Assembly (NCBI GenBank): GCA_965230295.1
Contig: OZ246001.1
Coordinates: 3,744,001-3,808,000, forward strand
DNA length: 64,000 nt
Direction: 5' to 3'
From: Marinicella sp.
Lineage (GTDB): Bacteria > Pseudomonadota > Gammaproteobacteria > Xanthomonadales > Marinicellaceae
In this document: in pieces, positions 39,482 to 63,398 of the stretch
How the letters are laid out: every line of letters begins with the position of its first letter
Numbering within the stretch: position 1 is the stretch's first letter
Notes under the pieces: model-generated
What the model was told of the DNA's origin: nothing
What the model saw: only the letters and a program-made list of their open reading frames with translations
The model's database searches: none
Position numbers and translations under genes: made by a program

Positions 39482-41752
39482 ATGATAAGCATGATTCATA
39501 AGTCCCTATTTATCCTTGGGTTGATTATATTGAGCATAAAGTCTAATGCTTGCGGTGGCAATACTGATATGTTTGTTACCACATGGCAAACAAACATTGC
39601 AAACCCAAATGAGCAATCTTTACATATTGTTCTAACCAATGGTGGATTTGATGACTATAGCTATAATGTAGATTGGGACTGTGACGGCGAGTTTGATGAA
39701 ACAGATATTACTGGTGATTTGGTTCACACATTTGGTTCCCCTGGCACATACCAAATTGGTATATATGGTGATTTTCCATCTTTCAAATTAGTTCACAGCG
39801 CAATAAACGAGAAGCAGAAACTAGTTGGAATTGAACAATGGGGTACCAACAACTGGAGGAGCATGTCAAGGGCGTTTCAAGGTGCTTCTAATTTAGTTGT
39901 TAACGCAACTGATATTCCAAATCTTTCATCTGTGAGCGGATTGAATAACATGTTTGAAGGTGCCACCTATGCCAACCCAGATGTAAGCAACTGGGATCTT
40001 TCAAATATAGATAATATTTCAGGCATGTTCCGCGCGGTAAACTTTAACCCTGATGTCAGCAATTGGGATACATCTAATATTGTAACAATGGTCCGAGTTT
40101 TTGAAAATGCATTGGGCGCGGAACCTGATGTCAGCAACTGGAATACCTCCTCAGTTACCAACATGAGCTATATGTTCTCTGGAGCGAGCAGTGCTGACCC
40201 TGATGTAAGTGGTTGGGATACCTCCAACGTAACCAACATGAGTAATATGTTTTCTGGAGCGAGCAGCGCTGAGCCTGATGTAAGTAGTTGGGATACCTCC
40301 AATGTGACCAGAATGAACTCAATGTTTCGAGATGCTACCAAGGCTAACCCTGATGTAAGTGGTTGGGACACCTCCAACGTGACCTACATGAGTAGTATGT
40401 TTTTTGGAGCGAGCAGTGCTGAGCCTGATGTAAGTGGTTGGGACACCTCTAACGTGACCAGCATGGTCTCAATGTTTTTTGGAGCGAGCAATGCTAACCC
40501 TGATGTAAGTGGTTGGGATACTTCCAACGTGACTGACATGAGCGCAATGTATTATGGAGCGAGCAATGCTAATCCTGATGTAAGTGGTTGGGATACCTCC
40601 AATGTGACCAGAATGAACTCAATGTTTCGAGATGCTACCAAGGCTAACCCTGATGTAAGTGGTTGGGATACTTCCAACGTGACTGACATGAGCCTAATGT
40701 ATTATGGAGCGAGCAATGCTAATCCCGATGTAAGTGATTGGGATACTTCCAACGTGCTCAACATGGGTTTTATGTTTTTTGAAGCGAGCAGTGCTAACCC
40801 TGATGTAAGCGGTTGGGATACTTCCAACGTGACTGACATGAGCGCAATGTATTATGGAGCGAGCAATGCTAACCCTGATGTAAGTGATTGGGATACTTCC
40901 AACGTGGTCAACATGGGTTCTATGTTTTTTGAAGCGAGCAGTGCTAACCCTGATGTAAGCGGTTGGGATACTTCCAACGTGACCAACATGGGTTTTATGT
41001 TTTTTGAAGCGAGCAGCGCTAACCCTGATGTAAGTGGGTGGGACACCTCCAACGTGACCAACATGAATTTTATGTTTTCTGGAGCGAGCAACGCTCACCC
41101 AAATATACTTTCCTGGAACATTGAAATGGTAATCCATATGTATAAATTCTTGACTGATTCATCTCTACCACCGAGGCAATATGACCTAACACTCCAAAAC
41201 TTTGCTTCTCAAAATGTTCAAAGTGATGTCGATTTTTCTGCAGGGGATTCTTGGTACTGTGATGATGTTAATAGGCAGGTACTTATTAATAAAGGCTGGG
41301 ATATTTTCGATGCAGGTCAAGGCTGTGGTTTGGACTTGTCAGTTTCCATAAATAATATTGCCCCTCATGTAGTTGGTGGAGAGATAGTGAAATACATTGT
41401 TACGGTAAAGAACACTGGATATGAGGACTCACTACCAGGAAACTCAACACTGGAAATCAATTATTCTCCAGCTCATTTTAACCTAGTAAGCTTCGAGTGT
41501 TTATCACTTGTCAATGCAACTTGTTTTGACGATGGCGGCATATTAAGTTTTACAATTGATGCATTTGCTGAGAGCGAGATGAAGGTGTTGATATCGGCAG
41601 TACCGAATGCTTTAATTGGTTCACAGGTGAATATGCAAAGCAACATTTCAGTGGTTAATCAGGAGGACCTGTTTATGCCAGATAATCAAGACGAACTGAT
41701 CGAAGTTGTTCTGGCTTCTGATGATCCTATTTTTTACAGTCGTTTTGACTAA
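39482..41752 (+). CDS. Secreted DUF285/BspA-like repeat protein
   Basis: Signal peptide, FVTTW, IEQWG..W.SM, about 15 x 25-aa ANPDVSGWDTSNVT.M..MF repeats, Ig/DUF11-like domain; ends DPIFYSRFD. Confidence 0.9.
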   Translation: MISMIHKSLFILGLIILSIKSNACGGNTDMFVTTWQTNIANPNEQSLHIVLTNGGFDDYSYNVDWDCDGEFDETDITGDLVHTFGSPGTYQIGIYGDFPSFKLVHSAINEKQKLVGIEQWGTNNWRSMSRAFQGASNLVVNATDIPNLSSVSGLNNMFEGATYANPDVSNWDLSNIDNISGMFRAVNFNPDVSNWDTSNIVTMVRVFENALGAEPDVSNWNTSSVTNMSYMFSGASSADPDVSGWDTSNVTNMSNMFSGASSAEPDVSSWDTSNVTRMNSMFRDATKANPDVSGWDTSNVTYMSSMFFGASSAEPDVSGWDTSNVTSMVSMFFGASNANPDVSGWDTSNVTDMSAMYYGASNANPDVSGWDTSNVTRMNSMFRDATKANPDVSGWDTSNVTDMSLMYYGASNANPDVSDWDTSNVLNMGFMFFEASSANPDVSGWDTSNVTDMSAMYYGASNANPDVSDWDTSNVVNMGSMFFEASSANPDVSGWDTSNVTNMGFMFFEASSANPDVSGWDTSNVTNMNFMFSGASNAHPNILSWNIEMVIHMYKFLTDSSLPPRQYDLTLQNFASQNVQSDVDFSAGDSWYCDDVNRQVLINKGWDIFDAGQGCGLDLSVSINNIAPHVVGGEIVKYIVTVKNTGYEDSLPGNSTLEINYSPAHFNLVSFECLSLVNATCFDDGGILSFTIDAFAESEMKVLISAVPNALIGSQVNMQSNISVVNQEDLFMPDNQDELIEVVLASDDPIFYSRFD
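39971..41100 (+). repeat. 75-bp coding tandem repeat array
   Basis: gctaaccctgatgtaagtggttgggatac(c/t)tccaacgtgac recurs every 75 bp. Confidence 0.95.
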
Positions 41753-41874
41753 TTTAATGCATAAGTACTTTATGGCACAAATAAATACTGTTCTGAATAA
41801 GTGGAAAAAGTATATATTGTTTGCTTTTCATATAAAGATGTATCGGAATCAGTCATGAAAGAACATAAACATTA

Positions 41875-42175
41875 AGAGATAATGAGCCTGGTATAATCAT
41901 CCAGTATGTTTACAAATAATTCTAACCCCAGCCAATAATCTTGAAGTAAGTAAAATCATTCTGCCAAATCTGATTCATTCGGGTACTGGGTTTGTCAAAC
42001 TTATCTAAAGCTTGCACCAGAATGTAAGCTGGAGATTTAACCAAGCCTTGTAACTTCAACAGCCTTTACTTTGATTATGATATATGAAACCTTGGGAATC
42101 GCTATATTTGACCGTCAGTTCTTGTGGCGTTACATTGGCATGGTTCAAAGCCATTTCAGCAATGGCTTGTTTCAG
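41875..42175 (-). pseudogene. IS3-family transposase remnant
   Basis: Minus strand gives ALNHANVTPQELTVKY / LVKSPAYILVQA.DKF...NQIWQNDFTYFKIIGWG*NYL* / ILDDYTRLII with stops and frameshifts. Confidence 0.75.
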
Positions 42176-42273
42176 TGATAAAGTTTCTGCGCAAAGATTT
42201 TTTGAGAACCAAAAGAGTGCAGGATACTCTGGCCTTACAACAACGCCCTCATATTACATTTAGCTAATTTGTT

Positions 42274-42337
42274 TGCAACAATTTTAAAATTTATTGCAAC
42301 CAGCTTAATATCGCCCCTAAAACATTATTCATATTAT
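42274..42337 (+). promoter_or_regulatory. TGCAAC-N15-TGCAAC box with -10-like TATTAT
   Basis: Half-sites at 42274 and 42295; TATTAT at 42332. Confidence 0.65.
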
Positions 42338-42421
42338 GTGTGTATGCACGATTTTTTCTGAATTTTCGTGAACTGAGAAAAATCAATCATTTGAATGGCT
42401 TAGATCTACTGATCAATATTA

Positions 42422-43825
42422 ATGAGGTATACCATGAATACAAAGGTTCTTAACAATAACAAAATTTTATTAACAACAGCAATATTAATGGAATTAACCA
42501 CTCGACCTACGACTGTCAACGCCGCCACTATCTTCGTCGACCAAGAAAATTGTCATTTAGCTTCAGCAATCGTTGCTGCAAATACTGATTCTGCTGTATT
42601 TGGTTGTACAGCTGGTTTTGGAGCAGATGAGATCGTTTTAAGCTCAAGAACCCAGATTGTTCTGAATGAGGCCCTGCCAATTATTAACAGTTCCATCACT
42701 ATACAAGGCAATGAATCAAGCATTGAAAGAAATAGTACAGATATATTCAGGGTGATAGATGTTCAGGCTGGTTCCTTAACTTTAAACGACGTTACTTTGA
42801 GTGGCGGTGCTTCTGAAAATTCAGGTTATAGGACGGATTATGGTGCAGGTATAAGGGTGTCATCTGGAAAACTGTATACAAACAATGCTATTGTTAAGAA
42901 CAACAGCGGAATTGGTGTTGCTGTATTGAACAATAGTATCGCAACCATCAACAACTCTGTGGTTGAAAATAATAACGGTTTGGCAACATATTTCAGCGGT
43001 GGAGGCGGGCTTCATATTGAAGGCAGCCAAGTAGATGTGCTCAACAGTGATATTTCAAATAATAACAACAATTCAACTGGGTTTGGTGGGGGTGGTGTCT
43101 ATATTTCAAATTACAATGCCCTATCAATTGTGAACATCAACAGCAGCAGTATTAATAACAACACTTCAATCCGCAGTGGTGGTGGAATAAGTGCCATTGC
43201 CAGTGGTGCAGGGGGGGCAGATGCTATTACTTTAAATATAAGAAACTCAACCATTAGTGGAAATACAACTGATGAAAATGGTGGAGGCATACACTGTAAC
43301 CTTATCAATTCATCAATCATCAGTAGTACAATCTCCGCAAACACAGCTACTGGATACAGGGGCGGTGGGATTTCATGCGGCATCAGTTTTTTACCAGCAG
43401 GATCTGTTGTTAACATTGAGCACAGCATTATATCTGGAAATATTGCGGAAATTGGTAGTGAGATTAACGATTTGGATTCGGTATTTTCAAATGGCTATAA
43501 CATCATAGGTCAGCTGGGTTACAATGGAATAGCAGGACCACTCACGCCTGTTGTATCAGATTTGGTGCCCACCGTTAGTATCGAAAATATAATCAAAAAC
43601 CTTGCTGATAACAGTTCTAACAATAACAAGGGTATGACTCATAATTTAGTGACTGCTAGCCCAGCCATTGACTTGATTAACAACAACATTGATTGCGAAA
43701 CAAGGGATCAAAACGGAGTAATCCGACCACTTGATGGAGATGGGTCCTCAACTAGCGAGTGCGATGCGGGTGCTGTTGAATACGAATTTCACTCTGATTT
43801 GATTTTCAGCGACGGCTTCGAATGA
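42422..43825 (+). CDS. Secreted right-handed beta-helix protein (CSLREA-like N-terminus, choice-of-anchor Q-like C-terminus)
   Basis: CHLASAIVAAN, GGGI/TISGN repeats, SPAID...DQNG..R......CDAGAVE; ends DLIFSDGFE. Confidence 0.85.
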   Translation: MRYTMNTKVLNNNKILLTTAILMELTTRPTTVNAATIFVDQENCHLASAIVAANTDSAVFGCTAGFGADEIVLSSRTQIVLNEALPIINSSITIQGNESSIERNSTDIFRVIDVQAGSLTLNDVTLSGGASENSGYRTDYGAGIRVSSGKLYTNNAIVKNNSGIGVAVLNNSIATINNSVVENNNGLATYFSGGGGLHIEGSQVDVLNSDISNNNNNSTGFGGGGVYISNYNALSIVNINSSSINNNTSIRSGGGISAIASGAGGADAITLNIRNSTISGNTTDENGGGIHCNLINSSIISSTISANTATGYRGGGISCGISFLPAGSVVNIEHSIISGNIAEIGSEINDLDSVFSNGYNIIGQLGYNGIAGPLTPVVSDLVPTVSIENIIKNLADNSSNNNKGMTHNLVTASPAIDLINNNIDCETRDQNGVIRPLDGDGSSTSECDAGAVEYEFHSDLIFSDGFE

Positions 43826-43842
43826 CTAACACGCCACCAATT

Positions 43843-44666: not shown

Positions 44667-47600
44667 TTGAAAAAAATTATTTTTATAATATTTTTATGTT
44701 GTAGTTTTACAACCAATGCCAATAAATATTTTGGGCAGCCCCTTGCGGAAATATATACACCAAGTGAAATTCAAGGACATTTCCAAAACTGGTGTCTGTA
44801 TCAAACTAATAATGATTTCATCTACGTGTGTAATGGTAACAGTATTCGAGTCTGGGATGGCGAGTCATGGAGTTTGTTGAGGCTGCCGAATAATTTAGGT
44901 CCAAGGCAACTAACAGAATGGAAAGGGCAGATATATTTGGGATTACCAAAAGATTTAGGTCTATTGAGCGAAAATGGTCAAGGGGTAAAGCAATTCAAAA
45001 GTTTGCTTACTGATGATGAAACACTAGAAATTGATCAAATTTGGTCAGTGGCTGCCACAGAAGATTATTTGTACTTTGTTGATACTAGTCAAATTTTTGT
45101 TTGGGATAATGAAAACTTAACACAATATGACATCCCCGACTTTAAAAGCAAAGTTTACAAATTTAAAAATAAGCTGTATTTAAAAACTTATGATGACATA
45201 TATGTCTACGAAATAACACCCACAGGCCTAAATAAAACTAATTGGCAATTACCGGAGAGGGGTTTGATTCGAGGAATGTTTCAAACAGCATATGGTGATT
45301 TTATGGTCACCAACAACTTTGGTATATATTCTATAGGTTCTGAACTAGAACTGATCAAAAACCCCTTTAACTCAGACGTATTCATTTTTAACAGCATCCT
45401 CACAAATGATGGGTATTTATATGTTGCATCTATCAACAAGGGCCTTTTCATACTTGATCATAAACTAGATATTCGATTGAATTTGACGCAGTCAGACAAA
45501 TTTGGCATGAGCCAAGTGGCTGATGTTATCCAAGATCGACAAGGGAATATATGGGCGGCTGGTTCTCCAAATATAGTGGTTATGCAACCACCACACATAA
45601 TGGGTAAAATCGTATTTGATGGTGATAATAACACTGTTTTGAATATTAAAAATATAGGCGATGAAACTATTGCGCTTGGTCGAGGGGCTTACAAATTGTC
45701 TGATGATAATGAGAGGCATCAGGCAAAATTTAAACATTGGTTGGAATTCAGAACTGTCAATGATGTTATTGAATATGATTATGATATCCTGGTATTTGCC
45801 CATAGCACAGGGATACAAGTTGTCAATTATGTCAATGGCCAGGCAAGAAAAAAGCAAAACCTATTAACAGGAACTCATGTTAATTCGTTATTCCGTCACC
45901 CAAGGACATCTTTTATTTATGCAGCTTCAGATGATGGCCTATTTGAAATAAAACAAGAACGAAATCAATGGATTGTTGAGTCTGTAGATGGTGTTTCCGA
46001 AGATGTTAGTCGGTTGATAATGGGAGACCAAGGCTATTTATGGGTGGGCGATGATTATGGAAATATATTTCAAGTTGAACCCAGCCAAATTGGAACTTCT
46101 AGTAAATTAATCAGGGTGTTTACTGAAAAGAATGGAATAGCCCAAAGCAACGTTGTACCTTTTGTCATAAATAATCAAACCTATATTGGAACATTTGATG
46201 GCGCCATGCAATGGGATGAATTCAATGATAATTTACAAATGGCAGAAGGCTTGCCAGAGATTTTTACAACCAAAGGGCAAGACATTCACCGAGTTTACCA
46301 AGATCATGATAATAACACTTTTTACCGTATCGGTAACCACAGTGGGTTAGCAAAATTTAATCAAGAAAAATGGAGTATAAATGAAAAATTGTTTTTACCA
46401 TTTAAAGCTAATTCAATTCAATCATTTTTGAAGGTCGAATCGACTTTATATTTTGTTGTTCCAGGTGTAGGTGTCTATTATTTAAACCAACCCGAGCATT
46501 CGATTTTACCTCCACAAGGTAAATTACATTTTAGAGCCGTTGAAGATAAACACAAGGGAGAATTACTATTTGATAATGCTGATAACTTAGATTCAATAAA
46601 TCGTAACTATAATGACACTGCACTCCGCTTGCTTTTTGCTTTTACTGATTACTCCTTACCTAACAAAACTTTATACAGAAGTAGGGTTGTTGGGTCAATT
46701 TCTCCTTCATGGTCGGTATGGAATACAGAAAATTTTCGTGAAGTTGATATAACGAAGGGAGGAACTTACGAACTAGAAATCCAAGCTAAGGACGGTTGGG
46801 AAAGACTCTCTGAAATCAAAAGCATTACGTTTACTATTGAACCACCTTGGTTTGCTTCATTTTGGGCTTATACCGCTTATGCCATTCTATTTATAATTAT
46901 TAATATCTTGATTGCGAATTATTATTCGAGATACCGAAATATGAAACTTGAAAAGGCTAAGTTACAACTACAAAAAACAGTCAAGGAAAAAACAAAAAAT
47001 GTTTATATTAAGGCCATGGAACTTGAACAAACACAAATGGCAAAAGATCGTTTCTTTGATGATTTCTCTCACGAATTAAGAACCCCACTGTCCTTGGTAA
47101 TGGCACCTTTAGAACAGTTGAGAGACAAAGATAAGAATGATGATCGGATGTTAGATTTGGCAATTCAAAATGCAGATAAATTGAGAAACCAAGTCAATCG
47201 ATTGTTTCAGATCCATGATGCAAATTTTAACAGCAACGACCTGTCTAAATCAGTGGTAGATTTAAGGGCCCGGGTACAAGAATTGGTAAAAGAATTTATG
47301 CCTTGGTCGATTAAATTGAAGCAACACATGGAGTTAGTTACTAACAAGCAAGAAATATCATGTTTTTGTGATGCCGATAAAATGGATGCTGTATTTAGGA
47401 ACCTGTTAAGCAATGCAATCAAGTACAGTGGTCAACAATCAAATATAAATGTGAATATGGCGCACGATTCGGAGAAGGTTGTTGTTTCAGTAATAGATGA
47501 TGGACCAGGAGTTGCCCAGCAAGATCAACAAAAGGTCTTTTCTCGGGACTTCAAAAGCGATGAGAATAATCAAAGTGATCAACCAGCTGTTGGCATTGGT

Positions 47601-49675: not shown

Positions 49676-51256
49676 ATGGATAAAATTACATTTGTGTATA
49701 TGATTTCAAGTTTGCTTTTTCTAGCTATAAACGGTTTACTCAGTCCGAGCCGGAATATTAATTTAGCTGACATCAATGGAAACAACGGCTTGGTGATTCA
49801 TGGGGAGCAAACTTCAGATTTTTCAGGTTATTCGGTCAGTAGTGCAGGTGATGTTAATGGAGACGGGATTGATGACATAATTATTGGTGCTTTTGAACCA
49901 GATCAGAACACAAAATACAATACTGGGCGCAGTTATGTGGTTTTTGGTAGTGATCAAGGGTTTTCTAATCCATTGGGTTTGGAAAACCTGAATGGATCTA
50001 ACGGTTTTGTTATAAATGGTGCTGAACACAATGATTCATCGGGCATGTCAGTTGCCTCAGCAGGTGACTTTAATAACGATGGGGTTGGAGATTTGCTTAT
50101 AGGAGCACCTGATGCATCAACAGGCATTGGATCAGTTTATATCATTTGGGGTAACAGGGAAGAACAATTCCCCAGCCCATTTGAATTGTCAGACATTAAT
50201 GGTGTTAACGGACTGGTTATCCATGGCGAAGAAGTTCAAGGGAAACTGGGTTTTTATGTCAGTTCAGCGAGTGATGTTAATGGTGACGGAATCAATGATA
50301 TGATTATTAGCTCACCAAAATCGGATGGCAATGGTACTGTCGATTCTGGTGCTATTTATGTGATATTTGGGAATGAATTGGGGCTTCCAAACCCATTTCG
50401 TGTCGGCTCCATTAATGGGGTGAATGGATTTAAGATCAATGGAGTTCCAACTACTGGTGCTCAGTCTGGTTTTTCTGTTAGCAAAGCAGGTGATATTAAT
50501 GCTGACGGTATTTCTGACCTTCTAATTGGTGTTCCATTTGATTCTAGTAACGGTAATTTGTTGTCAGGAAAAGTATACATTATTTTTGGAAAAAATAATG
50601 TATACCCAAATCTCTTTGAACTCTCAAGTATAAATGGATTGAATGGCATTCAGATTAATGGAGAAAATCAGGATGATCATTTAGGTTATTCTGTCAGTTT
50701 GGCTGGCGATGTCAATGGCGATAGTATAGACGACATCATTCTGGGAGCGCCATTTGCACAAGCTAATAATAGCGTGCAAGCTGGTGCCGCATATGTGATA
50801 TTTGGCAGCAATAAAAGACTACCAAACCCATTCAATATATCTACTATCAATGGTTTGAACGGATTCAAGATCACTGGAAATATCATTGGAGGCAAGCTTA
50901 GTCATTCAGTAAGTGGTGGAAGCGATATCAATGGCGATGGCTTAACCGACATAATAATAGGAGAACCTGATTCTAGGGCAGGAAGGAGTCATGTAATTTT
51001 TGGAAGCAACGAGGATTTCTCTAACCCATATAGCGTTGACTCTATCAATGATTCAACTGGATATACCATTAACGGTGTTAATGGTGGTGATTTACTGGGA
51101 TTCTCAGTCAGTGGTGCTGGAGATTTTAACGATGATGGTATTGGTGACATTATATTAGGTGCACATGGTGCTGATCCAAATGATATTTTTGAAGCTGGTA
51201 ACAGCTATGTGATATTTGGGAAAGAACAACCCGTTTTTGCTAATGGATTTGATTAA
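49676..51256 (+). CDS. Secreted FG-GAP/integrin-alpha-like beta-propeller protein
   Basis: About seven SVS.AGD.NGDG.DD.IIGA...G..YV.FG repeats; ends QPVFANGFD. Confidence 0.92.
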   Translation: MDKITFVYMISSLLFLAINGLLSPSRNINLADINGNNGLVIHGEQTSDFSGYSVSSAGDVNGDGIDDIIIGAFEPDQNTKYNTGRSYVVFGSDQGFSNPLGLENLNGSNGFVINGAEHNDSSGMSVASAGDFNNDGVGDLLIGAPDASTGIGSVYIIWGNREEQFPSPFELSDINGVNGLVIHGEEVQGKLGFYVSSASDVNGDGINDMIISSPKSDGNGTVDSGAIYVIFGNELGLPNPFRVGSINGVNGFKINGVPTTGAQSGFSVSKAGDINADGISDLLIGVPFDSSNGNLLSGKVYIIFGKNNVYPNLFELSSINGLNGIQINGENQDDHLGYSVSLAGDVNGDSIDDIILGAPFAQANNSVQAGAAYVIFGSNKRLPNPFNISTINGLNGFKITGNIIGGKLSHSVSGGSDINGDGLTDIIIGEPDSRAGRSHVIFGSNEDFSNPYSVDSINDSTGYTINGVNGGDLLGFSVSGAGDFNDDGIGDIILGAHGADPNDIFEAGNSYVIFGKEQPVFANGFD

Positions 51257-51649: not shown

Positions 51650-51714
51650 TGAAACAATTCTCATGACCATCGCAACATTTACAATATGTGACCATAAAAA
51701 TTTTTAGATATTCT
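51650..51714 (+). promoter_or_regulatory. Degenerate TGAAAC-N15-CGCAAC box with -10-like TATTCT
   Basis: Half-sites at 51650 and 51671; TATTCT at 51709. Confidence 0.5.
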
Positions 51715-51750
51715 TTCCTGCCTTATACCACACTAATCCAGAGGAGAAAA

Positions 51751-53940
51751 ATGAAGTTATCATTGCTATTAGTTTTATTAATCATCAAACAGCCTATTCA
51801 AGCTGGAGAAACTGAGCTCTCAAATCCAATTATGTTTGTTACGCAGTTTCCTATATCGAGTGACTTTGGCACAATTGGATCAACATTTGCAAATCACAGA
51901 GCTGACATAGCGGCTGTAGGTAGAGGCGGTGATTTGTACATCAGATACACTAATGGTGACTTAAGAAACTTAACCAGAGAGGCTGGTTTTGGCCAAGTGG
52001 GATTGCAAACGGGTAACGGGATTGCTGTTCGTGATCCAAGTATACATTGGAGCGGTGAAAAAGCATTGTTTAGTATGGTTGTCGGAGCTCCAGAAAGATT
52101 CGGTTCTAATGAATATTATTGGCAATTATATGAGATAACTGGTTTTGGAGTAGGAGAAACGGTTTCAATAACTAAGATACAAAACCAACCAACTGATTAC
52201 AACAATATCACTCCGATATATGGATCGGATGATGCAATCATTTTTACCTCAGATATGCCCAGGAGCAAAAACAGGCATAATTACCCACAATATGATGAAT
52301 ATGAATCAACACCCACTAATACAGGGTTATGGAGACTTAAAGAAGGTCGTGTCTCTTTGATACAACACTCACCATCTGGTTCTTTTAGTCCCTTAGTTGA
52401 TAGTTATGGTCGACTGGTATTTACACGTTGGGATCATTTGCAAAGAGATCAACAAGCTTCCCCAATAAATATAAATGGAGCCTTTAACTACAGCAGTGAA
52501 TCTCCAAACGCTCAATTACTGAATGAAATCACTGAAGTATTTCCGGAACCAAGACCAATTGAGTTCGATTTATTAAATGGAACCAATCTAGTTGGGCATA
52601 GAAGCAATCATTTCTTCCCTTGGCAAATCAATCAGGATGGCACTGAGGAAGAAACATTAAACCATGTGGGTCGTCATGAGCTTCATAGTTTTTTTGCTAG
52701 ATCTATAAACGATGATTCAAATGTAGTAGATTTCATAATTGGACAAAATCGCCCAAATCAAAACGCCATTCTTAACACCCTTCACTTGAATGAAGATCCC
52801 AACAATCCAGGGAGGTTCCTTGCTATTGATGCTCCAGAATTTCAGACACATTCAGGCGGACAATTGATTTCTTTTGATTTACCACTCGGTGCTGATCCTT
52901 CTTTAGTAACTGTCAGCTATATGAGCCATGAAAGTACTCGCTATGTGGTAGCAGATGGTACCACCGCTTCTCCAGAGCACGTTGGTTTTTTTCGCGAAGC
53001 AAGAACATTAACTGATGGTACTATCATAGCTTCACATACTTCTGAAACGAGGAAGGCCGGTAATGAAGGAACGTTAACTAATCCAGACCCCAGGTATGAT
53101 TTTACCATCAAAACTTTAACTCAAAACCAATCAGGAAATTGGGTGCCTGATTCCAGAATAACAAATTTAAACACAGTCAACATATCCTATTACAATCCTG
53201 ATGAGTTGGTGGATTATACTGGTCCTTTATGGGAGCTAATGCCTGTTGAAGTTGTGGCTCGAGAAGTACCTACTTACACCAGCGAAATTTTGCAGCCCCC
53301 CGAGCTTCAGGTTTTTGCTGAGGAAAATGTTGATGTCCAGTTATTTAAGGAATTTCTGAAAAACTATCGATTGGCACTTGCGGTGATGCGCGATGTAACT
53401 ACAAGGGATGAATTAGATTTACAACAGCCCTATAACCTCAAAGTGGCAAGCAGTGATCATCAAACTATTGCTAATAGTGGTCAATTATATGAAATTTCAC
53501 ACATGCAATTTTTCCAAGGAGATCAAATCAGGGGATATGGTGGAATAGATTCCCCCTTAAGTGGGCAGAGAGTTTTGGCTCAATTTCAACATGATTTAGC
53601 AGCCGATAAATATAATCTTCCATTCTCATCAAACCCACCTGGAAGTACTGAAATCTTTTCAGATGGTTCAGTTGCATTCTTAGTACCTGCTAACCGAGCG
53701 ATGAGCTGGCAAACTCTCGCTCCTGATGGTGAGGCTGTTGTGCGAGAACGTTACTGGGTAAACTTCCAACCAGGTGAAATTAGGGCGTGTGGTGGATGCC
53801 ATGGAGTCAATCAAGTTGATCAAGCAGGGCAGTTACCGTCCACTCAAAAACCAGAAGCTTTGCGAGCATTGTTAGCACATTGGAAAAACACATTCACAGA
53901 CTTAATTAAGAAGCATGACTTTGAGGTTGTTGAGCAATGA
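51751..53940 (+). CDS. Secreted beta-propeller protein with hydrazine-synthase-alpha-like domain and CxxCH heme motif
   Basis: GAGGAG then ATG 51751; DPSIHWSG..LFSM, GRLVFTRWDH, DGSVAFLVPANRAMSWQ...QPGEIRACGGCH; ends DLIKKHDFEVVEQ. Confidence 0.75.
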   Translation: MKLSLLLVLLIIKQPIQAGETELSNPIMFVTQFPISSDFGTIGSTFANHRADIAAVGRGGDLYIRYTNGDLRNLTREAGFGQVGLQTGNGIAVRDPSIHWSGEKALFSMVVGAPERFGSNEYYWQLYEITGFGVGETVSITKIQNQPTDYNNITPIYGSDDAIIFTSDMPRSKNRHNYPQYDEYESTPTNTGLWRLKEGRVSLIQHSPSGSFSPLVDSYGRLVFTRWDHLQRDQQASPININGAFNYSSESPNAQLLNEITEVFPEPRPIEFDLLNGTNLVGHRSNHFFPWQINQDGTEEETLNHVGRHELHSFFARSINDDSNVVDFIIGQNRPNQNAILNTLHLNEDPNNPGRFLAIDAPEFQTHSGGQLISFDLPLGADPSLVTVSYMSHESTRYVVADGTTASPEHVGFFREARTLTDGTIIASHTSETRKAGNEGTLTNPDPRYDFTIKTLTQNQSGNWVPDSRITNLNTVNISYYNPDELVDYTGPLWELMPVEVVAREVPTYTSEILQPPELQVFAEENVDVQLFKEFLKNYRLALAVMRDVTTRDELDLQQPYNLKVASSDHQTIANSGQLYEISHMQFFQGDQIRGYGGIDSPLSGQRVLAQFQHDLAADKYNLPFSSNPPGSTEIFSDGSVAFLVPANRAMSWQTLAPDGEAVVRERYWVNFQPGEIRACGGCHGVNQVDQAGQLPSTQKPEALRALLAHWKNTFTDLIKKHDFEVVEQ

Positions 53941-54804: not shown

Positions 54805-57800
54805 ATGAAATTCATAATTACAATTGCACTACTTTTGGGATTGGTGGCTGCACCCGTTGATGCAGAAAAAAAAGAATCATCTAAATTGATGACAGATAAA
54901 CTGTTTTCTGGGATGAAACTAAGAAATATTGGTCCTGCTTATATGTCAGGACGAATTGCGGATATTGAAGTTGACCCAAACAATCCTTCGATTTGGTATG
55001 TGGCTGTTGGCTCAGGTGGGGTATGGAAAACCGCTAATGGCGGCATTACCTGGGATCCAATTTTTGATAGCCAACCCGTTTATTCGATCGGTGATGTCAC
55101 TCTTGATCCTAGTAACTCAAACATTGTTTGGGTAGGCACAGGCGAAAACAATGCTGGTCGTCACTTGAGTTTTGGTGATGGCATTTACCGTTCACTTGAT
55201 GGTGGTGCTACTTGGACCAACATGGGGCTAAAAAAATCTGAACATATTTCAGATATTATTATTCACCCCAAAGATTCCAATACGGTTTGGGTTGCTGTTC
55301 AAGGCCCTTTATGGACTAAAGGTGGTCAAAGAGGATTATATAAAACTACTGATGGTGGTATGAACTGGAAAAACATACTTGAATTTAATGAGTGGACAGG
55401 TGTTACATCATTAGTCATGGATTCTCGAAATCCAGATAAACTTTATGCGGCCAGTTGGCAAAGACAGAGAACATTGCCAACCTATGTAGGAACCGGCCCC
55501 GGTTCTGGTATTCATACCACAGATGATGGTGGTAAAACCTGGAGAAAATTAAGTGGAGGTTTACCTATTGAAGATATGGGTAAAATTGGCTTAGCCATTT
55601 CAGCCCAAAATCCTGATGTTGTTTATGCCGCGATTGAAGTAAACCAACGTAAAGGTGGTGTTTATCGCTCAACTAACCAAGGTGCCAGCTGGAACAAAAT
55701 GTCCGATGAAGTAGGAAGTGGAACCGGTCCTCACTATTACCAAGAAATCTATACTGACCCACATCGTGATGATCGAATTTACTTAATGAGTAATAACAGT
55801 AAATACAGTAATGACGGTGGTAAGACTTGGGCCAATTTAAGTAATCAGTATAAGCATGTTGATGATCATGCCATGGCTTTTCATCCAAAAGACCCTTATT
55901 TTATGCTAGTGGGCAGTGACGGTGGTGTGTATGAATCAAGAGACGACATGAAGAATTGGCGTTATATGCAGAATTTACCAATTACTCAGTTTTATAAAAT
56001 AGCAGTTGATGATTCTATGCCTTTTTACTATATTTATGGCGGTACTCAAGATAATGCATCCCAAGGAGGCCCTTCACGAACAACCAGAGCACATGGAATT
56101 AAGAATAGTGACTGGTTTTTGATTTTGAATTGGGACGGACACCAACCGGCTACAGAACCTGGTAACCCAGATATTGTTTATGGGCAAAGACAAGAAGGTA
56201 ATCTGGCTCGATACCATCGCAAAACCAACGAATACGTATCAATTCAACCACAAGCCAGACCAGGTGAGCCAGGCGAGCGTTACAATTGGGATGCTCCAAT
56301 TTTAGTTTCAGCTCATGATCCGAAGCGCCTTTACCATGCTTCCCAGAGAGTATGGCGTTCTGATGATAGAGGTAACAGTTGGCGCACCATTTCAGGCGAT
56401 TTAACCAAGAATGAAAACAGAATGCATATACCGGTAATGGATCGTACGTGGTCAGTAAATTCTGGGTTTGATCTTTACGCTATGTCTAATTACAACACCA
56501 TCACAAACATCGCTGAATCACCACTTGATGAAAATATTTTGTACGTCGGTACGGATGATGGCTTGATTCAAGTGACATCAGATGGTGGAGCAAATTGGCA
56601 GCGTCATCAACTGGCTAACATCAGAGGCGTCCCTGAAACTGCATATGTGAACGACATTCGAGCAGATTTATTTGACAAAGACACGGTTTATGCTGCTTTA
56701 GATAATCACAAGCATGGTGATTACAACCCTTATCTGATTAAAAGTACCAATCGTGGAAAGTCTTGGAAATCTATCGCATCGAATTTACCCAATAATCATT
56801 TCGTTTGGAGGATTGTCCAAGATCATGTGAATAAAAATCTATTTTTTGTGGGTACAGAATTTGGATTGTTCTTTACTGTTAATGCAGGTAAAGATTGGGT
56901 TAAATTAACAGGTGATGTACCAACTATTTCTTTCCGAGATGTAAAAATTCAACGCCGCGAGAATGACTTGGTTGCAGGCAGTTTTGGCCGTGGTATATTT
57001 ATTTTAGATGACTATTCACCCTTGCGGAGTATCAGTGAATCAACACTTAGACAAGATGCTTTGTTGTTTCCCTCAAGAGATGCCCTCTGGTACATACCAG
57101 ATGCCTTACATACAAATTCGCACGGGGATTTTGAATACCGAGCCAAGAATCCAGATTTTGGTGCCACATTCACTTATTATCTGCGCGATGGTGTTAAATC
57201 AATGAAAGCGCTTCGAGAGGAGAAAGAGCAAAAGAACATACAGAAGGGAGAGTACCCATTGTATCCGGCCTTGGATATGATTGAGGCTGAAGTCAGAGAA
57301 ACAAAACCAGAAGTTTATTTACTTATAAAAGACAGTGAAGACAACATTGTTCGCAAGGTTGCTGCAAAAACAGGAAAAGGGCTTCACCGAGTCACTTGGA
57401 ATTTGCGCAAACCGTCTACAAATGCATTAGGCACAGCGCCAAGCTTTTTTGGAAATGTAGGCTCTTTAGTAGCGCCAGGTGAGTACAGTGCATCGTTGCA
57501 CGCAAAAATCGGTGGTCAAACGAGTATGTTGACACCAGCTGTTCGTTTTAATGTAATAGCACTTCATCAAGAAAATGAGGATGGTGCCGTTTCACCTCAA
57601 AAACGTACTGAGCTTATGCATGATGTTGATAATTTAAGGCGACATGTTTCAACAGCAAACAGTCAAGTCAAATTTCTAGAAAGTCAATTGACTTTCATAC
57701 AAACTGCGATGGATCGCTCTGCTACAATTTCTGCTGAATTGGAAGATAAATACCAACAATTGAGAGCAGCTGTATTTGAAATAGATAAGGTTCTAAATGG

Positions 57801-58059
57801 TTACTCATTCAGTAGAGGCTTAAATGCCATAGGTGCTGCACCTGCCACACTTTCAGACCGTATGTTTATGATTGAATTTGCCAAAGCCAACACTTGGGGT
57901 CTGACAGATACTCAAAAACAACAAATTGTATATGTGAAAGATGCATTAGGTAAGTTGCAGCCAAAAATTAAAAGATTGATGCAAAAAGAGTTCCCAGCTT
58001 TTAAAGCTTCACTTCTGAAAGCAGGTGCCCCCGGGATTCCAGCAGGTGTAATTGAATAA
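54805..58059 (+). CDS. Secreted VPS10/BNR (Asp-box) repeat protein, glycosyl-hydrolase-like
   Basis: LRNIGPA.MSGRIAD, repeated S.DGG.TW Asp-boxes, YGGTQDN, GSFGRG. Confidence 0.9.
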   Translation: MKFIITIALLLGLVAAPVDAEKKESSKLMTDKLFSGMKLRNIGPAYMSGRIADIEVDPNNPSIWYVAVGSGGVWKTANGGITWDPIFDSQPVYSIGDVTLDPSNSNIVWVGTGENNAGRHLSFGDGIYRSLDGGATWTNMGLKKSEHISDIIIHPKDSNTVWVAVQGPLWTKGGQRGLYKTTDGGMNWKNILEFNEWTGVTSLVMDSRNPDKLYAASWQRQRTLPTYVGTGPGSGIHTTDDGGKTWRKLSGGLPIEDMGKIGLAISAQNPDVVYAAIEVNQRKGGVYRSTNQGASWNKMSDEVGSGTGPHYYQEIYTDPHRDDRIYLMSNNSKYSNDGGKTWANLSNQYKHVDDHAMAFHPKDPYFMLVGSDGGVYESRDDMKNWRYMQNLPITQFYKIAVDDSMPFYYIYGGTQDNASQGGPSRTTRAHGIKNSDWFLILNWDGHQPATEPGNPDIVYGQRQEGNLARYHRKTNEYVSIQPQARPGEPGERYNWDAPILVSAHDPKRLYHASQRVWRSDDRGNSWRTISGDLTKNENRMHIPVMDRTWSVNSGFDLYAMSNYNTITNIAESPLDENILYVGTDDGLIQVTSDGGANWQRHQLANIRGVPETAYVNDIRADLFDKDTVYAALDNHKHGDYNPYLIKSTNRGKSWKSIASNLPNNHFVWRIVQDHVNKNLFFVGTEFGLFFTVNAGKDWVKLTGDVPTISFRDVKIQRRENDLVAGSFGRGIFILDDYSPLRSISESTLRQDALLFPSRDALWYIPDALHTNSHGDFEYRAKNPDFGATFTYYLRDGVKSMKALREEKEQKNIQKGEYPLYPALDMIEAEVRETKPEVYLLIKDSEDNIVRKVAAKTGKGLHRVTWNLRKPSTNALGTAPSFFGNVGSLVAPGEYSASLHAKIGGQTSMLTPAVRFNVIALHQENEDGAVSPQKRTELMHDVDNLRRHVSTANSQVKFLESQLTFIQTAMDRSATISAELEDKYQQLRAAVFEIDKVLNGYSFSRGLNAIGAAPATLSDRMFMIEFAKANTWGLTDTQKQQIVYVKDALGKLQPKIKRLMQKEFPAFKASLLKAGAPGIPAGVIE

Positions 58060-59443: not shown

Positions 59444-59494
59444 TTTTATATATGTATAAAAACTTAGCTGAAATTGAACCACACTAAAGTGTTC

Positions 59495-59558
59495 GCGCCC
59501 TTGAATGAGAAGTTTGTTTTCTCTCTCTCTTCAAACAGATATTTCATCTCAAGGGCGC
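59495..59558 (+). terminator. Long hairpin after the P-loop gene
   Basis: GCGCCCTTGA / TCAAGGGCGC followed by a T-run; degenerate relative at 58393-58460. Confidence 0.5.
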
Positions 59559-59814
59559 CTTTTTATATTACAGTTCATGTAAAATTGACTTAAACGCTGA
59601 ATGTTTTTTGTACAACTAAAAAAGATCAGATCCCACATACACTTTATTTCCTTCATAATTGCAACCACAAAACCGTTGGTACATTTAAAACCTTAATTAA
59701 TGTGTGCACCATCAATTCAACTTGAGTGTTTTGTTTAGCAGCTGTTCTCAGGTTGCAATTTATTATTAATGCGCCTCCATTTAAAACCTTTTCAATAAGT
59801 CGCTTAAATGGCCT

Positions 59815-59879
59815 TGCAACAAAACTGATAGAAGTTGCAACGAACCTGATCGTTATTTTTTCATGTGCAAGTGTAAACT
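59815..59879 (+). promoter_or_regulatory. TGCAAC-N15-TGCAAC box with -10-like TAAACT
   Basis: Half-sites at 59815 and 59836; TAAACT at 59874. Confidence 0.65.
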
Positions 59880-59982
59880 CTTCGACATAGTAATTCTTCC
59901 GATATGTGACTCGCTTTCACTACAAGATTTAGGTTCGCATTGACTTGTATGGACATGCATTAAAAACAAAACAGGTTTAGTT

Positions 59983-61635
59983 ATGAAAATAAACAAAATA
60001 GTATTTTTACTGACGCTATTATTCAGTCATCTATCTGTGATGGCACAATTACTCAGCGAAGTCGACTTATCTAGTTTGGATGGTCAAAATGGCTTTGTCA
60101 TCAATGGTGAATCTTTAGGTCTTTTTGGCGGTTCAGTCAGTTCTGCAGGCGATGTCAATGGTGATGGGCTTGGTGATTTTATTGTTGGGGCTCCGTTCGC
60201 CTCTAGTTCAAACAGTGATGTGGAGGTTCGTGAGAGGGTTGGCAAGAGTTATGTGATCTTTGGCAGTGAGGAAGGTTTTTCCAATCCGTTTGATTTATCC
60301 ACTCTCGATGGCGGGAATGGATTTGTTATAAATGGCGAGAATGCAGATGATCTTACGGGTTATTCTGTCAGTTCAGCCGGCGATGTCAATAGTGATGGTA
60401 TTGATGATTTAGTCATTGGTGCGTATGGCGCAGATCCATATGGTGGGCCAGAAAATGCTGGTAGAAGTTATGTGATTTTTGGCAGTGACGAAGAGAATGG
60501 TTTTTCCAGTTCGTTAAACGTGACTGATGTTGATGGTGAAAATGGCTTTGTCATCAATGGTGAAAATATGAATGATTATTCGGGTGTTTCAGTCAGTTTG
60601 GCGGGTGATGTTAATGGTGATGGGGTTGGTGATTTAATTATCGGGGCAGATTTTGCTGATCCGCATGGATTAAAAAATGCTGGTGTATGTTATGTGATTT
60701 TTGGCAAAAGGGTTGATGGCAGTAAGATTGGTTTTCCTCATCCGTTTAACCTATCTACTCTCGATGGTGAGAACGGCTTTGCTATCAATGGCGGAAGTGT
60801 AAGTGGTTTTCTGGGACGTGAAGTCAGCTCGGCCGGTGATGTCAATGGTGATGGGATTGATGATTTGATCATGGGTGCAGCTAGTGCAGATATAGGCGGT
60901 CAGTTTAATGTTGGTAAAAGTTATGTGATTTTTGGCAGCGACGAAGAGAATGGTTTGCCTCATCCGTTTAACCTGGTTGACCTTAATGGTGACAATGGAT
61001 TTGTCATTATTGGCGAAAATGAAGATGATTCGTCGGGTAGATCTGCCAGTTCAGCTGGCGATGTCAATGGTGATGGAATTGACGATCTGATAGTTGGAGC
61101 GTCTGGAGCTAATAAAAATTATGTGATCTATGGCCGCAGAATTGATTTCCCTCATCCATTTAACCTATCCACCCTGGATGGTGGTAGAAATGGTTTTGTT
61201 ATTAATGGCGAAAATGCAGGTGACGCTTTGGGTTCGTCAGTCAGTGCATTAGGCGATCTCAATGGTGATCAAATTGATGATTTGTTTGTTGGGGCTCCTG
61301 GTGCAGATCCTGATGGCAGATCAAATGCCGGTAAAAGTTATGTTGTCTTTGGGAGGAACGGTGGTTTACCCAATCCGTTTAATCTGTCTAACCTTAACAT
61401 CGACAACTGTCATAAAGGTATTACCATTAATGGTGAAAGTATAGATGATCTTTCAGGTTGGAGACTCAGTTCAGCAGGTGATGTCAATGGTGATGAAATT
61501 AATGATTTGATTATTGGAGTACCTGGTGCAGGTTCGGTTGGTAAAAGTTATGTGATCTTTGGAAAGAATGATAGCGCTGATATAGGCGGCGACAATGGTG
61601 ACACAATCTTTAAAAGCGGTTTTGAATGTATCTAG
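59983..61635 (+). CDS. Secreted FG-GAP/integrin-alpha-like protein
   Basis: Signal peptide, SAGDVNGDG.DD.I.GA repeats; ends DTIFKSGFECI. Confidence 0.92.
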   Translation: MKINKIVFLLTLLFSHLSVMAQLLSEVDLSSLDGQNGFVINGESLGLFGGSVSSAGDVNGDGLGDFIVGAPFASSSNSDVEVRERVGKSYVIFGSEEGFSNPFDLSTLDGGNGFVINGENADDLTGYSVSSAGDVNSDGIDDLVIGAYGADPYGGPENAGRSYVIFGSDEENGFSSSLNVTDVDGENGFVINGENMNDYSGVSVSLAGDVNGDGVGDLIIGADFADPHGLKNAGVCYVIFGKRVDGSKIGFPHPFNLSTLDGENGFAINGGSVSGFLGREVSSAGDVNGDGIDDLIMGAASADIGGQFNVGKSYVIFGSDEENGLPHPFNLVDLNGDNGFVIIGENEDDSSGRSASSAGDVNGDGIDDLIVGASGANKNYVIYGRRIDFPHPFNLSTLDGGRNGFVINGENAGDALGSSVSALGDLNGDQIDDLFVGAPGADPDGRSNAGKSYVVFGRNGGLPNPFNLSNLNIDNCHKGITINGESIDDLSGWRLSSAGDVNGDEINDLIIGVPGAGSVGKSYVIFGKNDSADIGGDNGDTIFKSGFECI

Positions 61636-61763
61636 GAATAAATTGTTTATTAAAAAGAATTCTCAGTTCTGAGGAGCAAGGCTGACCCTTTTGTGTATAT
61701 AGGCGTCAGACTGGGTTAGCCATTCTGGCAAATGTTATTTAATTAATAAAAATAAAGAAAGTT

Positions 61764-63398
61764 ATGAAAAAAAGTAAAAATGTATATGTAATTATATTAT
61801 TGGCAGTATTAGGCCATCAAGCTGCGTTTGCACAGTTTACAAGTGAATTAAATCTGTCAGATCTGAATGGTCAAAATGGCTTGATCATCATTGGTGAAAA
61901 TGGAATTGATTTTTTTTCGGGCTACTCTGTCAGTTCAGCCGGTGATGTTAATGGAGATGATGTTGATGATTTAATTATTGGAGCCTTTGGAGCTGACTTG
62001 GATGGGCTGGAAGGTGCTGGTAAAAGTTATGTGGTCTTTGGTAGTGAGGGCCGTTTGCCCAACCCTATTAATCTGTCTAACCTCAACGGGCAAAATGGTT
62101 TTATGATCAACGGCGAAAACAGGGATGATGCCTCAGGTATTTCCGTCAGCTCAGCTGGTGATGTTAATGGAGATGATGTTGATGATTTGATCATTGGAGC
62201 CTTAAGAGGAAATCCGAATGGCCAGACAAATGCTGGTAAAAGTTATGTGGTTTTTGGGAGCGCCGATGGTTTTTCAAGTCCGTTTAACCTGTTCCTTCTC
62301 AACGGACAGAATGGCTTTATTATCGATGGCGAAAGTGCAGGTGATTTCTCGGGCCATTCAGTCAGTTCTGCCGGTGATGTTAATAATGATGGATTTGACG
62401 ATTTAATTATTGGAGCATTTGGTGCTAATACAGGTGGTCAGCCATTTGCAGGAAAAAGTTATGTGGTCTATGGTAGTGGAAATAGTTTTCCAAATCCTCT
62501 TAACCTGTCTACCCTCAATAGTGAGAACGGGTTTGCTATTAATGGCGAATTTGCAGGTGATGAATCTGGCCGTTCAGTCAGTTCTGCTGGCGATATAAAT
62601 GGTGACGGAGTGGGTGATTTTGTAATTGGAGCCCATCCTGCAGATTTGGGTGGAGATGTAAATGTTGGTAAAAGTTATGTAGTCTTTGGTAGAAACGGCG
62701 GTTTGACCGATCCGTTCAACCTGCTTCAACTCAACGGACGGAATGGCTTTGTCATTAATGGTGAAAATGCAGGTGATAATTCAGGCATCTCGGTTAATTC
62801 AGCCGGTGATATAAATGGTGATGGCATTGATGATTTAATCATCGGTGCTTCTGGTGCAGATCCAAATGGTCAGTCGAATGCTGGAAAAAGCTATGTATTT
62901 TTTGGCATTGAAGATGAGGAAGGGGAGTTGGTTTTCCCCAATCCGCTTAACTTAATTGACATTAACGGACAGAATGGCTTTGTGATTTATGGAGAAAATG
63001 CAGGTGATGAATCAGGTATTTCGGTCAGTTCAGCTGGGGATGTTAATGATGATGGAATTGATGATTTGATTATTGGAGCTAGTAAGGCAAATCCGAATGG
63101 TGCTTTTGGTGCTGGTAAAAGCTATGTGGTTTTTGGTAATTCGACCTGTTTTCCTAGCCCACTTTACTTATCAACCCTCAATGGTAACCATGGTTTCACT
63201 ATTAATGGCGAAAATGAAGGTGATGAATCTGGCATTTCCGTTAGTTCAGCTGGTGATTTTGATAATGATGGAATTGATGATTTGATTATTGGAGCCAGTA
63301 GAGCAGATCTGAAAGGAGCTTTTGGTGCTGGTAAAAGCTATGTGGTTTTTGGTGGCAAGAGCGATATGGTTTTTGCAGATGGTTTTGATTGTAATTAA
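61764..63398 (+). CDS. Secreted FG-GAP/integrin-alpha-like protein
   Basis: Signal peptide ending AFA, same repeats; ends DMVFADGFDCN. Confidence 0.92.
   Translation: MKKSKNVYVIILLAVLGHQAAFAQFTSELNLSDLNGQNGLIIIGENGIDFFSGYSVSSAGDVNGDDVDDLIIGAFGADLDGLEGAGKSYVVFGSEGRLPNPINLSNLNGQNGFMINGENRDDASGISVSSAGDVNGDDVDDLIIGALRGNPNGQTNAGKSYVVFGSADGFSSPFNLFLLNGQNGFIIDGESAGDFSGHSVSSAGDVNNDGFDDLIIGAFGANTGGQPFAGKSYVVYGSGNSFPNPLNLSTLNSENGFAINGEFAGDESGRSVSSAGDINGDGVGDFVIGAHPADLGGDVNVGKSYVVFGRNGGLTDPFNLLQLNGRNGFVINGENAGDNSGISVNSAGDINGDGIDDLIIGASGADPNGQSNAGKSYVFFGIEDEEGELVFPNPLNLIDINGQNGFVIYGENAGDESGISVSSAGDVNDDGIDDLIIGASKANPNGAFGAGKSYVVFGNSTCFPSPLYLSTLNGNHGFTINGENEGDESGISVSSAGDFDNDGIDDLIIGASRADLKGAFGAGKSYVVFGGKSDMVFADGFDCN

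Follow-up and report, generated by a model that had tools for sequence, protein, structure and literature searches.

Several kinds of C-terminal signal are known on exported bacterial proteins. The tripartite sorting signals (PEP-CTERM with exosortase, IPTL-CTERM, GlyGly-CTERM with rhombosortase, and LPXTG with sortase) are independent of fold, occur on signal-peptide proteins and serve tens to more than 100 clients per genome. The C-terminal domain (CTD) of type IX secretion system (T9SS) cargo is a folded domain of 70-100 aa from Bacteroidota that has no transmembrane (TM) helix, is read after translocation on Sec-exported cargo of many folds, and leads to cargo that is finally tied to a surface glycan. 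Substrates of type II secretion systems (T2SS; Xps/Gsp) are Sec-dependent hydrolases and adhesin-like proteins; we know of no linear secretion signal for them, and the choice of cargo has been open for decades. Here we analyze a nine-residue C-terminal tag found on exported proteins in a 64,000-nucleotide stretch of Marinicella sp. (GenBank assembly GCA_965230295.1, contig OZ246001.1; hereafter the window), which is positions 3744001-3808000 of a genome assembled as a single 4,008,074-bp contig. We lean towards the reading that the tails in the window are copies of a proteome-wide tag that serves as a secretion or surface-retention signal after Sec translocation, for which an Xps-like T2SS would be the likeliest route and in which a secreted protein family (named fam186 here) and a lipoprotein would be involved.

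A first-pass annotation of the window had described the motif at the C-termini of six proteins (Table 1), and all six tails agree with its wording when their coordinates are checked. The six proteins have unrelated folds: one has DUF285/PARCEL repeats, one combines a beta-helix with a choice-of-anchor Q domain, three are FG-GAP propellers and one is HZS_alpha-like. All begin with signal-like sequences, and their C-termini are free of hydrophobic stretches. The motif is missing from the proteins encoded between the tagged genes (SRPBCC, VPS10-like, P-loop and hybrid sensor), as had been observed.

To count the tag across the genome, the regular expression [IVLM][FY]..[GSDRNH]F[DE] was searched in a crude set of 3425 genes, with the reversed motif and 20 within-protein shuffles as controls, and a protein was called tagged if the match lay ≤9 residues from its C-terminus. 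Matches anywhere in the protein numbered 154 (reversed motif: 24; shuffles: mean 36.4, maximum 47), and those ≤9 residues from the end numbered 109 (reversed motif: 2; shuffles: mean 1.2, maximum 3); the C-terminal enrichment is far above chance. A second count over 5814 stop-to-stop open reading frames (ORFs; each ≥100 aa) gave 115 motif matches, with 90 lying ≤6 residues from the stop and 56 exactly terminal. Removal of one chance match on a cytoplasmic protein from the 109 left 108 tagged proteins, and this number is a floor, since approximately 16 more proteins carry variants outside the expression (ending in Q or G, or with A or T at one position). The consensus, D-[LV]-I-F-x-[DNS]-[GD]-F-[DE], usually forms the last residues of the protein and is thus present on at least 108 proteins, or about 3% of genes. 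The tag is exactly terminal in 64 of the 108 and is followed by 1-7 extra residues in the other 44. D occurs at position -2 in 84 proteins, I in 94, F in 102, D/N/S in 99 and G/D in 86, and the motif closes with E in 68 and with D in 40. The codons of the tag differ from gene to gene, and selection therefore acts at the peptide level. The genome also contains one tandem double copy of the tag.

The tagged proteins are predominantly predicted to be exported and are diverse. By a permissive, deliberately crude heuristic, 92 of 109 tagged proteins were signal-peptide positive, compared with 1357 of 3316 untagged proteins (odds ratio 7.8, p = 4e-20), and most of the 17 heuristic-negative tagged proteins start like signal peptides by eye; 7 of 108 are lipoprotein-like. 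This enrichment, together with the terminal position of 109 of the 154 matches and the single cytoplasmic hit, agrees with what the first-pass annotation had expected of a proteome-wide scan. The 108 proteins fall into 68 families by sequence, 51 of them singletons, and the tag is independent of fold, as had been claimed from the window alone. Pfam searches were run on 49 of the 108 and placed the tag on M14, M28, M12, M64 and trypsin-like peptidases, as well as on Exo_endo_phos, purple-acid-phosphatase-like, arylsulfotransferase, LamG, beta-helix, DUF11, FG-GAP and DUF285 proteins; 13 of these 49 matched no Pfam family.

The tail itself was covered by no Pfam, NCBIfam or PDB entry in the window proteins, nor by Pfam among the 49 tagged proteins, and a search of the PDB with the tail profile matched only designed propellers, over the upstream FG-GAP part. 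An AlphaFold2 model of the beta-helix protein (protein 2 in Table 1), built on a 35-row alignment, has a mean predicted local distance difference test score (pLDDT) of 88 over the beta-helix, which falls from 59 to 42 over the last ~13 residues, where the model has no secondary structure. By this model the tail is not a strand of the preceding domain, and the possibility raised in the first-pass annotation, that a known domain already explains the tail as a structural strand, finds no support either in the model or in the family searches.

The same protein indicates what kind of position the tag holds. Its choice-of-anchor Q match (NF041518; 41.2 bits, cut-off 25), seen on this protein only, covers residues 399-455, and among 120 homologues the domain's conserved CD.GA.E motif directly precedes a variable C-terminal element. 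This element is the tag in Marinicella-type sequences, PEP-CTERM in homologue P0073, an IPTL-like VPT motif with TM helix and RRR in P0009, and elsewhere PTAV with TM helix and RRR, one of several other short tails without a TM helix, or nothing. Since homologues hold sorting signals right after CD.GA.E, the tag occupies a slot that evolution fills with sorting signals. A long form is found in the same slot as DGFESGDTTAWSxxxP in P0079 and as the variant DGFETGDISGWSSAVP in P0111, and once in the Marinicella genome (ending VFSDGFESGDTSAWSASCP, protein at 3860455-3861678); this form (GFE-x-G) was not enriched in tagless genomes. As separate observations, at least three further short tails without a TM helix follow the choice-of-anchor Q motif among homologues P0011-P0119 (Y/F-L-P-h-h-h-[RK]; F-V-V-P-L-x-N-G-K-x-V-I-F-x-L; L-Y-L-L-L-L-N), and each looks, by its sequence, like an uncatalogued tag of its own. 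Four genes of the Marinicella genome (3056-3868, 820214-821107, 982792-983415 and 2778439-2783760) encode proteins with a VPVP-type motif, TM helix and basic residues at the C-terminus (IPTL-CTERM-like by eye), one of them directly downstream of a small tagged ORF, so a separate minor sorting system may coexist with the tag.

Compared with the described signals, the tag resembles the tripartite sorting signals in its C-terminal position, its independence of fold, its restriction to signal-peptide proteins and its number of clients, but it consists of 9 residues plus 0-7 and has neither TM helix nor basic cluster. In agreement with the earlier assignment to none of LPXTG, PEP-CTERM, GlyGly-CTERM and the T9SS CTD, the window tails gave no NCBIfam match at E ≤ 1 and contain no TM segment. 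They end 0-4 residues past the motif, leaving no place for the PEP motif, TM helix and Arg-rich cluster of PEP-CTERM; the signature motif, TM helix and basic residues of LPXTG and GlyGly-CTERM are likewise absent, as are the IPTL-like motif, TM helix and basic cluster of IPTL-CTERM from the six window proteins. No sorting enzyme was identified for the tag; exosortase (PF09721) was not searched for. The T9SS CTD, a beta-sandwich of 70-100 aa (PF18962 / TIGR04183), gave no match. The tag shares with it the lack of a TM helix, cargo of many folds exported by Sec and, presumably, reading after translocation, and in the tagged genome a polysaccharide ABC exporter adjoins the linked secretion operon; it differs in being a nine-residue unstructured peptide (pLDDT <60) of a gammaproteobacterial order. 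Short aromatic or hydrophobic C-terminal peptides recognized in the envelope include the "acidic + hydrophobic" tails of type I secretion system (T1SS) metalloproteases, the beta-signal of outer-membrane proteins (OMPs) and the DegS-activating YxF, which are read by strand or carboxylate recognition. T1SS cargo, however, has no N-terminal signal peptide, unlike tagged proteins, and the OMP beta-signal ends in an aromatic residue that closes a barrel, whereas the tag has D or E as its final residue and the cargo protein that was modelled, a beta-helix, is soluble. Full-text literature searches (tag motif; order with sorting signal and T2SS; Marinicella; Wenzhouxiangella; choice-of-anchor) returned nothing on the tag, as judged from the search results.

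Distribution of the tag among relatives was assessed with DNA patterns. A strict pattern coding I-F-x-x-[GDE]-F-[DE]-stop matched 46 times in the Marinicella genome (reversed control: 0) and 9-66 times in each of 36 of 36 genomes of family f1 (families are labelled f1 to f12 and genomes by G numbers). Outside the order, in a class sample of 300 evenly drawn genomes (each ≥90% complete), the maximum was 3 matches per genome, which is the control level; within the class, the tag is confined to one order. The class sample includes one unpublished genome (G328), on which none of the conclusions depends. A looser pattern was applied to 221 genomes of the order (controls mostly 0-3 per genome, up to 14 in low-GC f1) and gave 9-79 matches per genome in f1, 4-34 in f3, 8-98 in f4 (mostly with L for I), 11-47 in f9 and 19-61 in f11, low to moderate counts in f5 and f6, 0-9 in f7 and f8, and 0-2 in f2 except for one genome (G447) with 24. 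Family f12 is split, with seven genomes at 14-43 and the other 24 at 0-5. The mention in the first-pass annotation of similar tails on marine Xanthomonadales-type proteins fits, and the close homologues carry the name Marinicella. The neighborhoods of tagged genes in low-count genomes (12 loci in G040, G043, G054, G059 and G053) contained no recurrent neighbor, and a related-locus search with a single-protein query yielded 3 loci and led nowhere.

The partner lead comes from the secretion genes. The Marinicella genome holds PilQ and two T2SSs, one of which is a partial gspC(PDZ)-D-E-F cluster and the other a full Xps-like operon in the order gspE-F-G-H-I-J-K-L-M-N-D (857482-867919). Directly after gspD lie the gene for a 144-aa lipoprotein (lipo144) and then fam186 (855496-856917), a member of a family of ~470-aa secreted proteins with 12 paralogues in the genome, which surfaced in a screen of paralogue neighbors. 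This gene order (gspD-lipo144-fam186) is preserved in ~57 of 75 named loci, including loci of Marinicella, Wenzhouxiangella, Dokdonella, Aquimonas, Pseudomarimonas, Elongatibacter, Nitrotoga, Sterolibacterium and Halioglobus. As an observation on the same region, the operon continues (847810-867919) through the lipoprotein gene and fam186 to a 420-aa unknown, a parvulin-type peptidyl-prolyl isomerase, Wzm/Wzt (with a Wzt_C domain), a GT2 glycosyltransferase and a methyltransferase, all with overlapping or near-abutting starts and stops, and other families and Nitrotoga-type loci show the same linkage of a T2SS with a polysaccharide exporter.

Presence of fam186 follows presence of the tag in the families that vary. 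In the first phyletic profiles (61 relatives), fam186 was found in every family but f2 (0 of 3) and in all f12 genomes but G057, and these are the four genomes that lack the tag entirely. Among the 221 genomes, it occurs in 1 of 32 f2 genomes, namely G447, the sole tag-rich one, and in 9 of 31 f12 genomes, namely the seven tag-rich ones plus G402 and G416. For f2 and f12 together, fam186 is thus present in 8 of 8 tag-rich genomes (≥14 matches; G447, G047, G363, G379, G462, G395, G482 and G516) versus 2 of 55 others. The core secretion genes do not vary in this way: GspL is kept both in tag-rich G447 and G363 and in tagless G371, G428 and G364, and fam186 only in the former two. Comparison of the operons by tblastn recovered gspE-gspM, gspN, gspD, lipo144 and fam186, often followed by Wzm/Wzt/GT2, in G040, G060, G050, G447, G363 and tagless G042, and recovered gspE-gspM and gspD, with no match to lipo144, fam186 or Wzm/Wzt, in tagless G057, G048, G371, G428 and G364. 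The only tag-rich genomes without a fam186 match, G439 and G489, both have a contig end at gspD. Tag counts correlate with the number of fam186 matches (Spearman 0.78 over 61 genomes, 0.67 within f1, 0.71 outside f1) and not with genome size (Spearman -0.05). Profiling of motif-rich against motif-free genomes, which the first-pass annotation had put forward as a way to co-occurring membrane proteins, therefore did yield co-occurring candidate genes, but these are accessory T2SS genes and not a membrane barrel.

For fam186 itself, no Pfam or NCBIfam family and no PDB relative by sequence was found, and the Atlas places it only in "cell surface protein" clusters. Its model is confident and all-beta (pLDDT 90). 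The best VIA match of the model is 1nc7_A (TM1070; Z 8.9, root-mean-square deviation 2.4, 104 residues, model residues 36-234), followed by weak resemblance of the N-terminal sandwich to galectin- and GOLD-like sandwiches (Z ~5); Foldseek gave no match at E ≤ 1e-3. A complex predicted from fam186 residues 29-473 and a 40-residue tail alignment scored 0.00 (mark 0.32).

Taking these results together, we infer that the tag would be a short linear peptide, recognized once Sec translocation is complete, by which cargo is routed out of the cell or held there. The likeliest export route would be the Xps-like T2SS (gspE to gspM, gspN and gspD), and fam186 and the lipoprotein may pass tagged cargo to the secretin or retain it on the cell surface after export. 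The cargo classes of the tag are those of T2SS substrates, and the tag co-occurs with accessory genes of the Xps-like operon, although that operon also exists without tags. For the sorting-signal idea of the first-pass annotation, independence of fold, restriction to signal-peptide proteins, C-terminal position, lack of a known family and the slot shared with sorting signals all speak in favor; its further suggestion of beta-strand docking to an outer-membrane partner falls outside what these results support.

Several observations weigh against this account. The tag directly abuts folded domains, with no Pro/Gly/Ser-rich linker found before it among the 108 tagged proteins, which is awkward for a deep binding groove. 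The motif also occurs at approximately eight internal sites (one immediately behind a signal peptide, others between domains or before an 88-aa C-terminal module), so a free carboxyl end is not strictly required. Outside the order, fam186 homologues occur in 8 of 299 class genomes scored, none of which is tagged; within it, f7 and f8 have fam186 in 60 of 62 genomes yet show the low counts given above, with ~1-3 real-looking tags in the five genomes viewed, and G042 has the whole operon and no clear tag. The lipo144-fam186 module thus looks necessary, as far as gene content tells, yet insufficient for tags. Its co-absence with the tag in f2 and f12 may stem from as few as two loss events, and because kin are not independent the co-occurrence statistics overstate the case. 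Fam186 could also be a co-inherited T2SS substrate rather than a reader; one fam186 paralogue is itself tagged, and the gspD-linked copies are untagged.

A more specific form of the same account is possible but rather doubtful. In this form the tag would be a linear, transferable T2SS targeting peptide, read by the outer-membrane lipoprotein and a lectin-like fam186, which would feed the secretin or dock cargo on polysaccharide exported by Wzm/Wzt. If true, T2SSs would have their own counterpart to the arrangement of CTD and anionic lipopolysaccharide (A-LPS) in the T9SS, and T2SS cargo its first simple sequence signal. What is new here is a lead to candidate partners of the tag (two accessory T2SS genes) and with it a short list of candidate readers. 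The tail marks ~3% of the proteome, is easily deleted or grafted, and occurs in culturable hosts (Marinicella, Dokdonella, Wenzhouxiangella); with candidate readers at hand, these properties make the question of T2SS cargo choice directly testable. For these degraders of sea and soil, the tag also offers a single-line criterion by which their exoproteome can be predicted, and it could be put to use as a portable tag for export or display.

Other candidates were rejected as required partners on their phyletic profiles in the 61 relatives. Searches for the PDZ-bearing GspC of the second T2SS (658963-659829), with PF11356 too, did not detect it in G044 (15 tags), G043 or G054, and it occurs in tagless G042. 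Nearly every genome, tagless ones included, has the GspL of the Xps-like T2SS, which therefore does not discriminate, and GspN-like proteins are found in both tag-rich and tagless operons. The VPS10/sortilin-like protein of the window was considered as a receptor for C-terminal peptides by analogy with sortilin; the family to which it belongs is multi-copy, occurs in low-tag families and is absent from, or only weakly matched in, several tag-rich f1 genomes. A two-PDZ protein (618292-619584) is absent from g5, G032 and G035, a protein with PDZ and alpha/beta-hydrolase domains (3214288-3215604) is patchy (24 of 61 genomes), and PF07638 sigma factors are present everywhere in the 61 relatives.

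Among alternatives to export or retention through the T2SS-linked genes, the one that survives best, though we consider it unlikely, is surface retention with no protein reader, in which the acidic-aromatic tail would bind the outer leaflet (lipopolysaccharide (LPS) or polysaccharide exported by Wzm/Wzt), possibly via divalent cations, and keep enzymes on the cell. In favor, the tail is free of basic residues and combines 3-4 acidic with 3-4 hydrophobic or aromatic ones, the secretion operon is followed by a Wzm/Wzt/GT2 cluster in G000, G040, G042, G447, G363 and many named loci, and the six candidate readers tested were all rejected, leaving no dedicated one. Nine conserved positions with near-invariant I, F and F are nevertheless more than charge or greasiness requires, and binding to the outer leaflet leaves unexplained the joint loss of tags, lipo144 and fam186 where gspE-gspM and gspD persist.

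Less probable still is that the tail is a signaling ligand, an idea that arises from a set of regulatory modules. Between 1136103 and 3451616 the genome contains 12 modules (e.g., 1520012-1525769) that pair an extracytoplasmic function (ECF) sigma factor (PF07638) with a Ser/Thr kinase; every one of these kinases has a single TM helix and a TPR region in the periplasm. A tagged gene lies immediately beside 7 of the 12 modules and within two genes of 8, which 0 of 20,000 random placements reach; three modules are in an apparent operon with the adjoining tagged gene, and the adjoining tagged proteins are mutually unrelated save for one pair. One possible explanation of the adjacency is that exoprotein genes are under the control of these sigma factors; another is that the tails are sensed by the TPR domains. 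In the latter case, periplasmic sensing of tails would report exoprotein load or export failure to the kinases. There are parallels, as DegS senses the C-termini of OMPs and TPR domains are able to grip acidic peptides at C-termini, as in Hop with the EEVD tail. One tail on more than 100 proteins, however, cannot confer module specificity, the adjacency is equally explained if tagged genes are targets of the sigma factors, PF07638 sigma factors score strongly in tagless genomes too, and the tagged genes of low-count genomes do not adjoin such modules. Under either reading, the link gives a handle on kinases of unknown signals. As a separate observation, in the low-tag genome G054 (C18, L020, 7901-10725) a 236-aa tagged gene overlaps the start of a gene for a 705-aa protein that begins TIR-like and has a TPR region similar to that of the kinases (27% identity over 355 aa).

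Equally improbable in our estimate is a processing or quality-control mark, that is, a cleavage site or degron that a periplasmic or extracellular protease would recognize, so that the tail would either be taken off as the protein matures or serve in the clearance of protein left unexported. Many of the C-terminal extensions of secreted proteases are indeed clipped, the residues past the motif are dispensable (0-7 extra), and internal copies of the tag lie at domain borders. No scissile position is conserved, however (at position 4, 62 of the 108 have G, 24 D, 11 S and 8 N), the PDZ-bearing candidates tested fail to track the tag, and the 8 PDZ proteins annotated include no S41 peptidase, the family of the C-terminal processing proteases Prc and CtpA. 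That the tail is a structural relic, the first strand or stub of a longer C-terminal module (long form F-x-DGFESGDTSAWS) with no function of its own, is highly improbable and already disfavoured: the long form is seen in the one genomic protein and the two homologues mentioned above, but more than 100 independent proteins retain the nine residues with varying codons, AlphaFold2 does not pack the tail on the domain, and the decayed copy on protein 4 of the window shows what lost constraint looks like.

Table 1. Tagged genes and intervening genes in the Marinicella window (window positions unless marked as genome positions)
Feature	Position	Strand	Description	C-terminal tail (position)
Tagged exported protein 1	39482..41752	+	756 aa, DUF285/PARCEL repeats, lipoprotein-like signal peptide	DPIFYSRFD, then stop (41723-41749)
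Tagged exported protein 2	42422..43825	+	467 aa, right-handed beta-helix, choice-of-anchor Q domain at residues 399-455	DLIFSDGFE (43796-43822)
Hybrid sensor	44667-48524		1285 aa; Reg_prop propeller, HisKA, HATPase, REC, AraC HTH; lies between tagged genes	
Tagged exported protein 3	49676..51256	+	526 aa, FG-GAP propeller	QPVFANGFD (51227-51253)
Exported protein 4	51688..53940	+	750 aa, HZS_alpha-like	decayed tag DLIKKHDFE, then VVEQ (53899-53937)
VPS10/sortilin-like BNR protein	54805-58059		1084 aa, secreted; at least 5 paralogues in the genome, large family in the order	
Tagged exported protein 5	59983..61635	+	550 aa, FG-GAP	DTIFKSGFE, then CI (61600-61632)
Tagged exported protein 6	61764..63398	+	544 aa, FG-GAP	DMVFADGFD, then CN (63363-63395)
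Seventh FG-GAP gene, cut by window end	63452..64000 (full gene: genome 3807452-3809116)	+		variant tag, ends DIIFESAFDCN

The tail of protein 4, which the first-pass annotation had listed as the weakest of the six, is a decayed copy, because a paralogue at genome 2037244-2039493 that is 72% identical to protein 4 ends in the tag. In the aligned tails, the paralogue reads TFTDLIFADDFE before its stop and protein 4 reads TFTDLIKKHDFEVVEQ before its stop. The tandem FG-GAP genes towards the end of the window (60001-64000) have a GC skew of +0.31, compared with 0.03-0.10 in the rest of 39482-63398, and this rise probably reflects the codon composition of the Gly/Asp-rich repeats.

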